Shown here: piece by piece, positions 51,635 to 61,311 of the stretch
How the letters are laid out: each line of letters begins with the position of its first letter
Numbering within the stretch: the first letter of the stretch is position 1
DNA from: a virus
Taxonomy: Duplodnaviria; Heunggongvirae; Uroviricota; Caudoviricetes
DNA: 64,000 nucleotides
Reading direction: 5' to 3' (one strand)
Virus record (IMG/VR): IMGVR_UViG_3300035494_000066
The notes under the pieces: generated by a model
What the model saw: the letters and a program-made list of their open reading frames with translations, nothing else
Told to the model about the DNA's origin: nothing
The model's database searches: none
Translations under genes and position numbers: made by a program

Positions 51635-53068
51635 TTAGCGACAACGCGTCTCTACAACTCCGCTAAACTTATCTTCGGCATACGAAAGCATCTGTGCAAA
51701 CGAGTCGAACACCTTGCCAAATGCTTTAGTAGTCTTATCAGCTGACTTAAGCACGAATTCACTAACCGGCTTGCCGTCAACATACACGTCGCCAAACACA
51801 TCATCTGTTACTTCATCAACGTCATCGATTTTTGCTTCAACGTCATCGTTAATAACCCGACGAACTGAGTTCATTGACTCTGCTACGTTGAGTTGTTTGC
51901 GATATTTCATAACTGCTTTTTTAGCTTTAGTTACAGCTCGTGCACGAGTAGGTTCGCGACCGGATTCTAATGTTTTATTAGGTTTTCCGTACTCAACTGC
52001 GTATACTTTCCACTCGAATCCGTCGCCGGATTTTTTTGTACTCCATCCAAACGAATTTGGACTTTCTGACAACTTAACCGATTCACTGACGTTGCGATTA
52101 TTAGCTACTTTAGCCATGTTCTTGGCCATGGTAGTTGCTGTCTGAAGTGATAAGTCTTCTTTCTCTGGGACAGGGTCAAACTCAAATCCAATACTACCGC
52201 TGCGAGTAAGTGTAACAGATGCACGAGATACATAAAAACTATTTTGGTTGTTTACAGCAGGATCGTCAAGCACTACGTAATAAACATGCGACCCCGACCG
52301 GAATCCAGCATATTCGATCAAAACAACGTCTGACATCACTCCTTCGGTATATCCGGCGTTGTTATAAAATTGCTCCAGCTGATCTTCAGTATACGGCCCA
52401 GCTATAGCAGCTGTTGCTTCGTGCACGCCTGCACTATAAGAATTGTCAGCTGACTCCGATGCTATTTTTGGTTTGATATTATCGATGTAAAATAGCTCCG
52501 ATGCAATCTCATAATCAGGATTGTTTGCTTTAGCTAGTGCAGCTTTTACTCCGTTGTATGTAGACCAACGCTTACGAGCGGCTAGCTTCTTTGTAGCAGT
52601 ATTGTATATAACCCACGGCCCGCCGCCGCTGGCTGCTTCTGTAGTTTTACTAACATCTTCATCTTTGTCATACGCATACCATTCATCGTACGACAAGTAC
52701 ATGTCAGTATCCGGGTCGTAGTATTTCCCTTCGCGAGGATCGTAATACACAACTTTGCCGGAGCGTGTGCGGAACGGCCCCTCTAATCCTTCGCGTTCCT
52801 GGTATCTTTCTGTATCAATCGGCGGAAGGACTTTATATCCTTCGAGCACCGTTAACCCTGCTTCTTTTGCCCACGTCTTTATCGCGCGTGAGGGGACTGC
52901 AGTTAATGAAGAGATGTCAGCCGGACTTCTTCCTTCTTTAATAAGACGGGTTACTAATAGTTTTAATCGTTCTGCAGATGCTGTTTTAGCTACTTCCTTG
53001 ATCTTCCGGCGCTTAGTAGTCCGCAATTCAGCTTCAACTAAGTATTCTGATAGTGTTTTCATTTTCAT
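51635..53068 (-). CDS. modular protein with a capsid-targeting-like N-terminus; candidate processed internal head polyprotein
   Basis: MKMKTLSEYLVEA; unrelated modules separated by VLEG, VHEA, VSES, LSES, VAES. Confidence 0.65.
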   Translation of the reverse strand: MKMKTLSEYLVEAELRTTKRRKIKEVAKTASAERLKLLVTRLIKEGRSPADISSLTAVPSRAIKTWAKEAGLTVLEGYKVLPPIDTERYQEREGLEGPFRTRSGKVVYYDPREGKYYDPDTDMYLSYDEWYAYDKDEDVSKTTEAASGGGPWVIYNTATKKLAARKRWSTYNGVKAALAKANNPDYEIASELFYIDNIKPKIASESADNSYSAGVHEATAAIAGPYTEDQLEQFYNNAGYTEGVMSDVVLIEYAGFRSGSHVYYVVLDDPAVNNQNSFYVSRASVTLTRSGSIGFEFDPVPEKEDLSLQTATTMAKNMAKVANNRNVSESVKLSESPNSFGWSTKKSGDGFEWKVYAVEYGKPNKTLESGREPTRARAVTKAKKAVMKYRKQLNVAESMNSVRRVINDDVEAKIDDVDEVTDDVFGDVYVDGKPVSEFVLKSADKTTKAFGKVFDSFAQMLSYAEDKFSGVVETRCR

Positions 53069-58112: not shown

Positions 58113-58634
58113 ATGTCGCATACACTCATCTTAAACGCAGACTACCAGCCTATTAGCTTGATTCCGCTAAGTGTCATTGACTGGCAACAGGCGATAAAAT
58201 TGCAGTGGCTCGGAAAGCTTCATGTACTACACACATACGAAGATTGGATAGTACATAGTCCTACTACTTCGTTCCATGTCCCGGCGGTATGTGTTACATC
58301 GAAGTACTACAAAGTTCCTCTAGACGCAAACTTCTCGCGATCCAATCTATACATACGTGATGCATTTGTTTGCCAGTATTGCAACGAGCAGTACAGCACA
58401 TCCGAGCTTTCGATTGATCACGTAATCCCGCAGTCGCTCGGCGGTGGTACGTCATGGGAGAATTGTGTAACTAGTTGCAAACCGTGCAACCACGGTAAAG
58501 GAAGCAAACTCATCAAGCCAATTCGCCAGCCGTATGCACCATCATACTGGGATCTTGCAAGAAAGTCAGTTGGTCGGCATGTCAAAATTAAACACGATAG
58601 CTGGCGGCAATATTTAAAACCTGTACTGTCATAA
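58113..58634 (+). CDS. HNH endonuclease family protein (CxxC...DH.IP...GG...WEN...C..CN)
   Basis: LILNADY.P, RD...CQYC, SIDHVIPQSLGG.TSWENCVTSCKPCN..K. Confidence 0.9.
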   Translation: MSHTLILNADYQPISLIPLSVIDWQQAIKLQWLGKLHVLHTYEDWIVHSPTTSFHVPAVCVTSKYYKVPLDANFSRSNLYIRDAFVCQYCNEQYSTSELSIDHVIPQSLGGGTSWENCVTSCKPCNHGKGSKLIKPIRQPYAPSYWDLARKSVGRHVKIKHDSWRQYLKPVLS

Positions 58635-58661
58635 AAAAGCCCTGCATATGCAGGGCTTTTT
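58634..58661. terminator. bidirectional terminator between convergent genes
   Basis: Perfect palindrome AAAAAGCCCTGCATATGCAGGGCTTTTT. Confidence 0.9.
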
Positions 58662-58669
58662 ACTTTCAA

Positions 58670-60784
58670 TTACATAGAAGTGTAGCCGCTTCCGTTAACG
58701 TTTGAATCTACTCCAGTTGACTTAAGTCGCTTGCGCAAATTCTCTTCTTGCCTTGCTAAGCTATCTGCTAACGTAGTATTACCGGCTTCTTGTGCTTTTT
58801 GTTTTCGGTGCACAATTTGATTTAGCTGATTAGTAAGCGCCAACTGTTGAGCGTTTTCACTTACACTACCTTGTTCGCGGGCAGCTGAGACAATCTGAAT
58901 CGTATACGTTGGGTTTTTAACTTTGATCTTATCAGTAACTGCTCTAGCATGGCGCATAGACTTGAACTCAACTGGCGTCCCTGCTTTTTTCCAGACTTTT
59001 CCGTTGATAACAACATTAAATACTTTGTTTTGTGCAGCAGGCACACTATTCGTCTCTGATCCTAGCTCATGATCTAATTCGCGCTGTTTAAACTGCTGCT
59101 TTGTCATCTGACCCCAGTCGTCTGTTTCATTGATGTTAGCTTTAGTTAATTCACTTGCGCGGAACTCAACTTCTCTTCCACCTCGGAATTTTACTAATAT
59201 GTAACCACCGTCTTTTCCGGAAACAGTGCCAGTTCGGCCGGCATACTTTTTACCAATTCGATCTTTAACGGTGCTGCTAACTGTAACTTTAGCACCGTTT
59301 TCGAAGTTTTCCTGCAGAGTAGCAGCGCTTTCGTTGTCAACACAACTTTCGGCAAAAATGCGCACGTTATCAATGTTGTCTTCGTTTTTTGCAATCCATC
59401 GTTCAGCTGCTGATTGTGTTTTAAACTTTTTACGAAACTTCTTGTCGTTTAAACCTTGTACACCAGTTACAATAACAGTTTTTCCGTCCATGTCTGTGTC
59501 TCGGGCTACTACGCTGCTCTCTTTTACATTATAGCCGCGATCGTCTGCCGCTAGCGGATTGTCTCCCGGGCGTTGTTTGAAGTGCTTACCTTTCGGTCCG
59601 TTAATGCCACCACTTAAACCAACTAGCTGAGTTTCGGTATCTAGATACTTTTCGTCTGGTTCGTTGGCGTATTCTTCTGTTGTTACAGCCGAGCAGCCAC
59701 AATCGTCGGCAGTATTTAATCCTGATAGTTTAAGGATTTCTGCTAGCATCAAAGCATGTTGTCCTGTTGCATTAACACTAACACTTTGCTCACCAGCATC
59801 GTTAACTGTACTAGTAATGCTAAACGACTCGTTAATTTTTTTAGATTCAGTGACTGGAGCGTTTTTACTTAAGTTATCAGCAAACGACACCATTTCATCG
59901 CCGTATTGCGACAATGTCATATATTCATCATCGTCGTACCAAGTTTCCATCTTACGGAAGAATGATTGTACTAACTCAGTCGTGCCTAGCTTATGCGCAA
60001 AGCTCCATAAGTTTTCATTAAATTCTTCTAAAAATGATTCAGAATATTCGCCTTGGTCGTATAAGCTTTCCATCTTTGCATACAACGTTTTCATTACTTC
60101 AACAGCATTGGATTTATCTACGCTGCTGTCATCGCTACCTTCGTGCACGGACTCAAAATCAAACTGGCGAGAGTAATCATTCCAGTCTTCATCTTCGTCT
60201 TCGTCGTCTGCATGCTTTAATTGACTTCCGTGGTACGCACTTTGGTCGCCATGGTCGAGATCAACAACATAGAATTTGCCCGACGGTGATACCCCTGCGA
60301 TGGTTCCGAGCCCTTCGGGAGAGTGTACACGATCTCCCTCCGAAAATACCTCTTCGTCGTCATCTTCATAATAGTCGTCGTCACTTTCTATAACTGTATC
60401 TTCGAGCTGACTGTCTAGTTCAATATCGTGCACCCGAGCAAAGTCGTCGACGAATTCGTTCAACTCGTCAGCTGTTGTCCACTTACTGTACTCGGCCATG
60501 AGAGTTTTAGGACCTAGGGCTGTTTCTAGCTCGTCGATTGCTGCTTGCAAATCTCCATACTGATCTACGTCAATGTCGAACGCGCCTTCGACATGATCAA
60601 TGAATTCTTGCATGTCGCGGCTTCCGAGCCAGCGGACTAATTCAGCCCATAAACTAACTAACCCAACTTGGTCAACTAGCGCATTAAATTTCTCAAATTT
60701 GTCGCCGTACGACTCTAAGGTGCGTGACTCGCACAATGATGTTTTTGATGATATAGCATCAAGCTTGTTTAAAATATCTTTCAT
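58670..60784 (-). CDS. 704-aa modular protein; candidate processed internal head polyprotein
   Basis: Tandemly duplicated helical units and two SH3/KOW-like units, separated by LCES, VIES, VHEG, VTES, INES, VKES, LQEN, INET, VSEN. Confidence 0.65.
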   Translation of the reverse strand: MKDILNKLDAISSKTSLCESRTLESYGDKFEKFNALVDQVGLVSLWAELVRWLGSRDMQEFIDHVEGAFDIDVDQYGDLQAAIDELETALGPKTLMAEYSKWTTADELNEFVDDFARVHDIELDSQLEDTVIESDDDYYEDDDEEVFSEGDRVHSPEGLGTIAGVSPSGKFYVVDLDHGDQSAYHGSQLKHADDEDEDEDWNDYSRQFDFESVHEGSDDSSVDKSNAVEVMKTLYAKMESLYDQGEYSESFLEEFNENLWSFAHKLGTTELVQSFFRKMETWYDDDEYMTLSQYGDEMVSFADNLSKNAPVTESKKINESFSITSTVNDAGEQSVSVNATGQHALMLAEILKLSGLNTADDCGCSAVTTEEYANEPDEKYLDTETQLVGLSGGINGPKGKHFKQRPGDNPLAADDRGYNVKESSVVARDTDMDGKTVIVTGVQGLNDKKFRKKFKTQSAAERWIAKNEDNIDNVRIFAESCVDNESAATLQENFENGAKVTVSSTVKDRIGKKYAGRTGTVSGKDGGYILVKFRGGREVEFRASELTKANINETDDWGQMTKQQFKQRELDHELGSETNSVPAAQNKVFNVVINGKVWKKAGTPVEFKSMRHARAVTDKIKVKNPTYTIQIVSAAREQGSVSENAQQLALTNQLNQIVHRKQKAQEAGNTTLADSLARQEENLRKRLKSTGVDSNVNGSGYTSM

Positions 60785-60786
60785 GT

Positions 60787-61311
60787 TTAATCCCTTTTAC
60801 TTAGCGGACCTGGTTTTGTAGCAAACACATCTTTCATTGAGTCGTCTACTAGGTCGTTAACGAGTTTTTTATTGTAATTGTCGCCGTAATAATCGTCGTG
60901 GTCAATATCTGACTTTGCATAATCTGTGTCGAGCAAAGACTCATATTCTTCATCGCCTTTTGCAACTGCTTCTTCTCTAGCAATCTCTTCTGGGTGATCT
61001 TTATTGATCACAACCATATGGCTTGCTGGGTATCGAAGGACAAACGACAAGTAGTTATGCAACTCTGCCGGAGTTACCGGATAACTCACAGTCGCGTCAA
61101 CAATCGACACATCTGCATTCTGCAACGTTTGGAAGTCTAAGGGATGCTCTTGGATCGGCGTCTTTTTTGGCTTTGACAAACTTTTAAGTTCGTATTTTTC
61201 TAACGCAATTTCTAGCTTTTCGATATTAAAGTCGTCTGGCAGATCTGCAAACTTTAATCTAAAGCTATATTCTTTTGCACTTTCAGTTAAGTATTCGCGA
61301 AACTTTTTCAT
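60787..61311 (-). CDS. late protein with T4 capsid-targeting-like N-terminus MKKFREYLTE/S
   Basis: Resembles the T4 IP leader MKTYQEFIAE; late promoter 61341-61346. Confidence 0.65.
   Translation of the reverse strand: MKKFREYLTESAKEYSFRLKFADLPDDFNIEKLEIALEKYELKSLSKPKKTPIQEHPLDFQTLQNADVSIVDATVSYPVTPAELHNYLSFVLRYPASHMVVINKDHPEEIAREEAVAKGDEEYESLLDTDYAKSDIDHDDYYGDNYNKKLVNDLVDDSMKDVFATKPGPLSKRD

Follow-up and report, generated by a model that had tools for sequence, protein, structure and literature searches.

What is made from a 704-residue open reading frame (ORF) that lies among the virion and packaging genes of an uncultured phage and carries, between small unrelated modules, motifs of the kind cut by the T4 prohead protease? 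The ORF belongs to a stretch of 64,000 nucleotides (the window) of the IMG/VR virus genome IMGVR_UViG_3300035494_000066 (Caudoviricetes; 302,518 bp), and an earlier interpretation made from the letters alone (the sequence-only reading) had proposed that it encodes a processed polyprotein of injected mini-domains. The source phage is T4-like, with a genome of about 300 kb and a terminase 58% identical to that of the Pseudomonas jumbo phage PA5oct. We consider it probable, with some reserve, that the protein, labelled P0001 here, is a late multi-module precursor of head-internal proteins (a ‘poly-internal-protein’) that would be loaded into the prohead and then cut by the prohead protease.

The ORF has the extent and length first given for it, and the nine [LIV]xE[SGNT] sites listed earlier were all found, with their glutamates at residues 19, 133, 215, 313, 319, 422, 492, 553 and 643; three further sites, at residues 149, 257 and 479, have F or M at P3. 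The features of the gene are as follows, an arrow marking each predicted cut.

58670..60784, minus strand: whole ORF of P0001, 704 amino acids, 78 kDa, isoelectric point (pI) 4.6; proposed multi-module head-internal precursor
60791..60796, minus strand: Shine-Dalgarno sequence AAGGGA of P0001
60728..60784, minus strand: leader, residues 1-19, ending LCE↓S
60386..60727, minus strand: residues 20-133, acidic helical module, tandem duplicate, ending VIE↓S; also present in the relative P0018
60140..60385, minus strand: residues 134-215, very acidic, possible small beta unit, ending VHE↓G
59846..60139, minus strand: residues 216-313, acidic helical module, second duplicate (MESLYD / METWYD), ending VTE↓S
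59519..59845, minus strand: GDNP module, residues 314-422, bounded by INE↓S and VKE↓S
59309..59518, minus strand: residues 423-492, beta-beta-alpha-beta mini-domain (430-480) and linker with FAE↓S and LQE↓N
59126..59308, minus strand: residues 493-553, small basic beta-barrel-like module, pI 9.9, ending INE↓T
58856..59125, minus strand: ‘FKxRELxHEL...KVWKK’ module (KVWKK module), residues 554-643, basic alpha/beta, ending VSE↓N
58673..58855, minus strand: residues 644-704, basic helical hairpin (643-689) and short tail
58633..58660, minus strand: strong intrinsic terminator directly past the stop codon, GCCCTGCATATGCAGGGC followed by a T-run

Both internal duplications described earlier are real (residues 26-74 against 76-124, E 8e-8; residues 227-266 against 268-305, E 2e-6). 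The GDNP module of P0001 comprises a beta-hairpin, the helix EILKLSGL and the motifs EEYANEP, GGxNGPK and GDNPL. The linkers had been called acidic, which holds for the N-terminal half only: the predicted pieces have pI 4.1-4.6 across residues 20-422 and pI 9.6-9.9 across residues 493-704, the latter at 6.6 to 10 kDa each. Two SH3-like barrels had also been proposed; they have no sequence likeness to each other, and the one at about residues 505-550 is a predicted beta domain of moderate confidence, while the one at residues 149-176 could not be verified. The ATG lies only 2 nt past the stop codon of an upstream 174-residue virion-protein gene, so the two genes probably form one operon. The T4 late-promoter consensus TATAAATA is absent near the P0001 gene, and its frequency across the window does not exceed the chance level.

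The genome encodes a protease of the T4 gp21 family (Peptidase_S77; genome positions 282542-283171), whose match to PF03420 scores 94.8 bits, above the cut-off, at 282590-283021. The adjacent gene (genome positions 283174-284280, C1; L003:2085-3191) specifies a 368-residue protein homologous to the scaffolding proteins found in the PA5oct / RaK2 / 121Q group. This scaffold contains 16 [LIV]xE[SGNTA] sites, mostly x-E-S, amounting to 4.3 per 100 residues against 0.48 genome-wide. The major capsid protein has four sites within its first 43 residues, one of which, LAE↓A, precedes the conserved GVQPM motif by a few dozen residues, at about the position where T4 gp23 is matured. Because the motif is concentrated in the expected substrates of the protease, namely the scaffold encoded next to it and the propeptide of the major capsid protein, it is very probably the site of this gp21-type protease, in line with the prohead-protease motif that had been proposed. 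P0001 carries nine sites where 3.9 are expected (p 0.014; 3000 composition-preserving shuffles) and five [LIV]xES where 0.97 are expected (p 0.004, same shuffles). The enrichment is real but moderate: among 379 ORFs the scaffold ranks first, a neighbouring 477-residue gene second and P0001 fifth. P0001 is not of the scaffold or prohead core type (T4 gp22, gp67, gp68), having 1.3 sites per 100 residues, a hypervariable sequence and a position elsewhere in the genome, and it shares with the scaffold only the LAGL-type helix.

The comparative evidence is stronger than this enrichment. Three modules of P0001 recur at the N-terminus of smaller proteins, directly after leaders that resemble the capsid-targeting sequences (CTSs) of T4. 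The KVWKK module stands alone in P0116 (104 residues, leader MKTFTEFKKEINE↓A) and in P0030 (leader MKISEIINE↓T), and the domain at residues 430-480 directly follows a CTS-like leader, MQSFIEFNTIVTE↓A (...IVTE↓A), in P0132. In the T4 record, the corresponding leaders are MKTYQEFIAE↓A for the internal proteins IPII and IPIII and the 19-residue MKTFKEF...ITE↓A for IPI, which the P0001 leader matches in its length and in its (L/I/V)-x-E end. The 10-residue CTS of T4 is sufficient for encapsidation, its residues 8 and 10 govern cleavage, Asp in place of the P1 Glu stops processing while leaving targeting intact, and CTS-like leaders sit on unrelated cargo in T4-related phages (PMC9026906).

An AlphaFold model of residues 423-704, built from a 24-row alignment, has a mean predicted local distance difference test score (pLDDT) of 75 and contains four units:

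residues 430-480: beta-beta-alpha-beta domain, pLDDT about 90
residues 505-550: small barrel, moderate confidence
residues 562-633: alpha/beta domain, pLDDT 89-97
residues 643-689: helical hairpin, pLDDT about 95

The pLDDT falls below 50 at residues 423-429, 484-502, 520-524 (inside the barrel), 549-554, 639-641 and 697-701. Sites 492 and 553 fall inside such stretches between domains and sites 422 and 643 are no more than two residues away from one, so that in this part of the protein the sites occupy predicted inter-domain linkers, as had been suggested. None of the modules could be tied to a known family or fold. Searches with the P0001 gene by megablast and tblastn gave no match in 50,697 phage records; Pfam returned sub-threshold noise, with no domain at the cut-off and no peptidase domain, and PHROGs returned nothing; no shorter relatives of residues 423-704 emerged from a word-indexed search. 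Foldseek gave no match to the 423-704 model in the PDB at E <= 0.001, and a fold search against BFVD retrieved uncharacterised phage proteins only. A search of the ESM Atlas with the KVWKK module and with a minimal GDNP protein gave scores below 0.8 and no usable lead. The top PDB rows (phi29 p56, T4 Dmd and Tudor/SH3/Hfq barrels; E 0.4-2, TM 0.4-0.5) were rejected as evidence of an anti-defence role because they are generic small folds.

If the sites are joints between cargo units, modules should come and go at them, and the sequence-only reading had proposed this as a check. The relative P0018 (302 residues) consists of a leader, the helical-duplicate module, a short helical segment and a GDNP module; compared with it, P0001 has an insertion that starts exactly at VIE↓S and of which residues 134-215 are part. 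Residues 423-704 start at VKE↓S and correspond to proteins that are separate elsewhere (P0132, P0074). In the relative L159 the equivalent gene (L159:3343-5417) is split into genes of 553 and 138 residues, the latter encoding P0007, with an ATGA overlap, and the break falls exactly where P0001 has INE↓S. Over 280 non-identical proteins of the family, 755 of 2883 similarity boundaries lie at most 6 residues from a site, against 539 +/- 19 for random sites. The gain and loss of modules at sites was thus borne out.

The sites themselves are also conserved. In alignment A1, [IV]-x-E-[AST] occurs just upstream of the KVWKK module in six of nine proteins (three with an N-terminal and three with an internal copy). 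Distinct viral ORFs that carry this module number 57; they span 64 to 1747 residues, and some are truncated by the end of a contig. Where the copy is N-terminal, it is preceded by a leader such as MKMSELLDE↓G; of 45 internal copies, 23 have a site 8-40 residues upstream, compared with 27% of the background windows (p 6e-4). Upstream of the LAGL helix, at a distance of 18-50 residues, a site is present in 34 of 41 GDNP modules, compared with 36% of the background windows.

These data bear on an alternative that we hold to be unlikely, though it deserves a serious hearing, namely that only the leader is removed, one or two other cuts perhaps being made, leaving one large bead-on-a-string internal or ejection protein of the polyvalent type, in which the linker motifs are relics of past gene fusions. 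Fusing CTS-led genes would indeed leave such motifs, many motif-bearing head proteins of giant phages are uncleaved (PMC10052503), and packaging without processing is described for N4 vRNAP and for some polyvalent proteins (PMC5512222). However, distant relatives keep the site before the modules much more often than background would give, and the sites lie in exposed, low-confidence linkers that are expected to be reachable by a protease confined with its substrates.

P0001 occupies a hypervariable slot next to the 174-residue gene. Over 80 IMG/VR loci with a gp282-like gene, the slot gene that follows it encodes from 154 to more than 734 residues; the leaders at its start are of a related type, M-x-D-(I/L/V)-(L/Y)-x-K-(L/I)-x-x-I-x-E, the other content being unrelated between clades. 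P0002, a confirmed positional orthologue next to which an antisense HNH gene is also kept, extends the range to 1066 residues; it has only two modules in common with P0001, one at 71% identity, in a different order. Loci of the L024 and L054 types form a clade of slot proteins of 319 to 350 residues with the leader MNDLYKAID..., which has neither canonical sites nor GDNP module, so that no fewer than two unrelated designs occur in the slot.

A search of 1.84 billion representative proteins yielded 265 relatives of P0001 (clusters at 50% identity), most of them matching residues 316-422, that is, the GDNP module. Its consensus (hairpin, LLKLAGL, EEYANEP, GGLNGPK, GDNPM) marks more than 140 related proteins, is covered by no Pfam or PHROG model and is present in 34 of 61 positional orthologues. 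The median distance between the end of the module and the C-terminus is 23 residues in the relatives; in P0001 the module is atypically internal. The smallest member, P0007 (138 residues), is MNKFNQLLE↓S followed by the GDNP module. On sequence grounds, the slot proteins that carry this module or resemble PA5oct gp281 constitute a previously unnamed family, delimited here, to which P0001 belongs by both position and module. The helix of the module resembles the conserved C-terminal motif of the scaffold, which reads IKRLAGLK in the source phage, LRRLAGIK in PA5oct and LDVLSGINKK in 121Q; it recurs as EILKLSGL in the GDNP module and as DILRLAGV at the start of PA5oct gp281. Proteins of this type may gain entry to the prohead through mimicry of the contact that the scaffold makes with its C-terminus.

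The comparison with PA5oct places the slot among virion genes. The gene order (head-closure gene, 175-residue gene, 174-residue gene, P0001, HNH gene on the opposite strand, terL) is that of PA5oct (gp283, gp282, gp281, terL), and the N-termini of gp283 and gp282 are clearly homologous to the 175- and 174-residue genes. P0001 thus takes the place that gp281 has in PA5oct, with the gp282-like gene on one side and terL on the other. PA5oct gp281 (YP_010678933.1) is an acidic protein of 498 residues, annotated as a structural protein that tandem mass spectrometry with electrospray ionization (ESI-MS/MS) detected in virions. It resembles P0001 in its acidic bead-like build, in repeated xLxLAG[VIL] helices, two of which are followed by V-x-E↓S, and in a GDNA motif near its C-terminus; it differs in its size, in that only short motifs align, and in having no counterpart of residues 423-704. 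Of the PA5oct head-module genes, only that of the scaffold homologue carries no ESI-MS/MS note. The intervening and upstream neighbours of P0001 are as follows.

60787..61311, minus strand: upstream 174-residue gene, phrog_14802 ‘virion structural protein’, homologue of PA5oct structural protein gp282
58113-58634 of the window, plus strand: HNH endonuclease gene, antisense, between the slot gene and terL-N

The 174-residue gene itself begins with MKKFREYLTE↓S, a near copy of the CTS of T4 IPII and IPIII, and its relatives with MKTFKDYLME↓S. In the distant relative L085 an HNH gene is placed and oriented likewise, and the insertion hence appears old or recurrent.

It is rather improbable, in our estimation, that the N-terminal 422 residues, which are acidic, serve as a long sacrificial propeptide or as an auxiliary component of the core, chopped at many sites and expelled, with the basic modules of residues 423-704 as the only mature cargo. 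Such a role would suit the sharp charge split of P0001, the copy of the scaffold C-terminal motif in its GDNP module and the long propeptides of SPN3US (e.g. gp53) that are removed by multiple cleavages (PMC10052503); the scaffold homologue, moreover, is the one head-module protein undetected in PA5oct virions. But in most relatives the GDNP module is C-terminal with nothing basic after it, so that no cargo would remain, and the acidic gp281, a protein of the same type, is still detected in virions. Finally, that P0001 is no virion protein at all and is instead a disordered, fast-evolving accessory protein, placed between packaging genes by chance and with coincidental motif counts, would fit the lack of an assignable family, fold or function and an enrichment of only p about 0.01, yet this is highly improbable given the flanking virion and packaging genes, the positional counterpart found in PA5oct virions, a leader like that of T4 IPI and the recurrence of its modules behind T4-type leaders.

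Several points weigh against the multi-module precursor that we favour. Motifs do not guarantee cutting, since most SPN3US head proteins are uncleaved (PMC10052503), and the motif enrichment in P0001 alone is modest, suggestive and not decisive. The p-values for boundaries and for site conservation overstate independence, the sequences being related. The N-terminal half has no confident model, a single-sequence fold of the whole protein having a mean pLDDT of 40. One clade of positional orthologues is without canonical [LIV]xE[SGNTA] sites. The likeness to PA5oct gp281 is one of position and short motifs, with a GDNP profile score of 7 bits obtained with filters off; as that profile gave motif-level matches only, we claim no homology beyond position and motifs.

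For P0001 as a precursor cut in the prohead, we infer from the sequence the following course of packaging, cleavage and fate of the pieces. P0001 would be co-expressed with the upstream virion gene, and its 19-residue leader would carry it into the assembling prohead, to which the internal helix EILKLSGL may contribute since it copies the conserved C-terminal motif of the scaffold. The gp21-type serine protease would then cut after the glutamate of (L/I/V)-x-E↓(S/G/N/T/A) sites in the linkers and release about ten pieces of 2 to 13 kDa. Residues 20-422 would give four acidic pieces (pI about 4.1) and a mildly acidic GDNP piece (pI 4.6), and the remainder one near-neutral piece (residues 423-492, pI 5.4) and three basic ones from residues 493-704. 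If T4 is a guide, the basic pieces would remain with the DNA and exit together with it when a cell is infected; the acidic ones may be driven out, as scaffold fragments are.

The comparative data thus speak for the polyprotein that the sequence-only reading had put forward, which is still unproven. The further claims that the pieces are injected and that they serve as anti-defence or host-takeover effectors are unsupported, and ‘undescribed delivery system’ was too strong a term, as CTS loading, polyvalent proteins and multiply cleaved head proteins have all been described.

That reading had also pointed to a second gene of the same design in the window, and its leader, sites and shared module were confirmed.

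51635..53068, minus strand: 477-residue gene, second of the P0001 design, leader MKMKTLSEYLVE↓A, eight sites, second most enriched ORF in the genome

Its unit ‘GLEGPF...YYDP.EGKYYD’ (phrog_13298) also occurs in P0002 and P0003, positional orthologues of P0001 in other phages. Outside the window, three small ORFs have leader-like starts and are candidates for further capsid cargo: one of 107 residues (genome C1:184028-184351) that starts with MKEDIKKYMQILSE↓S and has 3.7 sites per 100 residues, one of 77 residues (C1:167010-167243) whose start MNDIVNKLSAALYE↓T resembles the P0001 leader, and one of 124 residues (C1:194097-194471) that starts with MRYYEFINE↓S. In L159, a gene for an ART-PolyVal protein (Alt-like ADP-ribosyltransferase; L159:9241-10417) lies two genes past terL and has five protease-type sites in its first 60 residues.

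If the cuts happen, the slot is an example of how large phages can expand and rearrange the cargo that they package with no new loading mechanism, a leader with its cleavage site serving both as the start of a gene and as the joint of a polyprotein. The combination of leader, [LIV]xE↓S and a gp21-type protease would then be a sequence rule for finding capsid cargo in metagenomic phages. If they do not, P0001 is still a hypervariable virion protein. The unannotated GDNP family has been delimited, and small orphan domains that merit a screen for DNA binding or for anti-defence activity have been listed. A broader idea, which we offer tentatively as possible and rather doubtful, is that CTS-type sites are universal junctions across which small cargo domains move freely, in a large group of T4-like and jumbo phages, between stand-alone genes with a leader and polyproteins that reach about 1000 residues or more, providing a combinatorial, fast-evolving means of loading many small proteins into the capsid and of delivering them with the DNA, some perhaps as anti-defence or takeover factors.

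How, then, does P0001 stand to the systems already known? The loading of cargo by a capsid-targeting sequence followed by gp21 cleavage is classic T4 biology (PMC9026906). P0001 resembles T4 IPI, IPII and IPIII in its short leader ending in (L/I)-x-E↓ before A or S, in the gp21-family protease encoded alongside, in hypervariable content behind a conserved leader and, for the predicted C-terminal products alone, in small size and basic character. It differs from them in having no sequence homology to any T4 internal protein by Pfam, PHROG or tblastn, in being one 78-kDa precursor with about nine internal sites whereas T4 has one cargo per gene, in the strongly acidic character of one half, and in lying between packaging genes and not at the T4 ip loci.

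The polyvalent proteins of phages and conjugative elements are multi-domain proteins delivered by the virion (Iyer, Burroughs, Anand, de Souza and Aravind 2017, PMC5512222). Like them, P0001 joins many unrelated domains in one polypeptide and is encoded among virion and packaging genes, its proposed logic is that several functions are delivered together and freed by proteolysis, and its relative L159 carries a gene with an ART-PolyVal domain. Unlike them, P0001 has no catalogued enzymatic or LPD domains and no embedded zincin-like MPTase according to Pfam; its mini-domains are of 50 to 110 residues, and it is the capsid maturation protease that is proposed to release them, acting in trans on CTS-type sites.

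Multiple cleavage of head proteins has already been described in giant phages (PMC10052503). With SPN3US gp53 and gp54 and the inner-body proteins of phiKZ, P0001 shares a gp21-like protease proposed to cut at several x-E↓ sites, with Ser preferred at P1' in both (PMC10052503). The phage lineage and the motif are different (A-x-E in SPN3US), and in SPN3US the extra cuts remove a propeptide, whereas the pieces of P0001 are predicted to be discrete folded modules, which also exist as separate genes. In the literature, no paper was found that describes the GDNP family or the design of P0001; judged from its sequence, this design looks like an unreported elaboration of the known T4 cargo-loading system.

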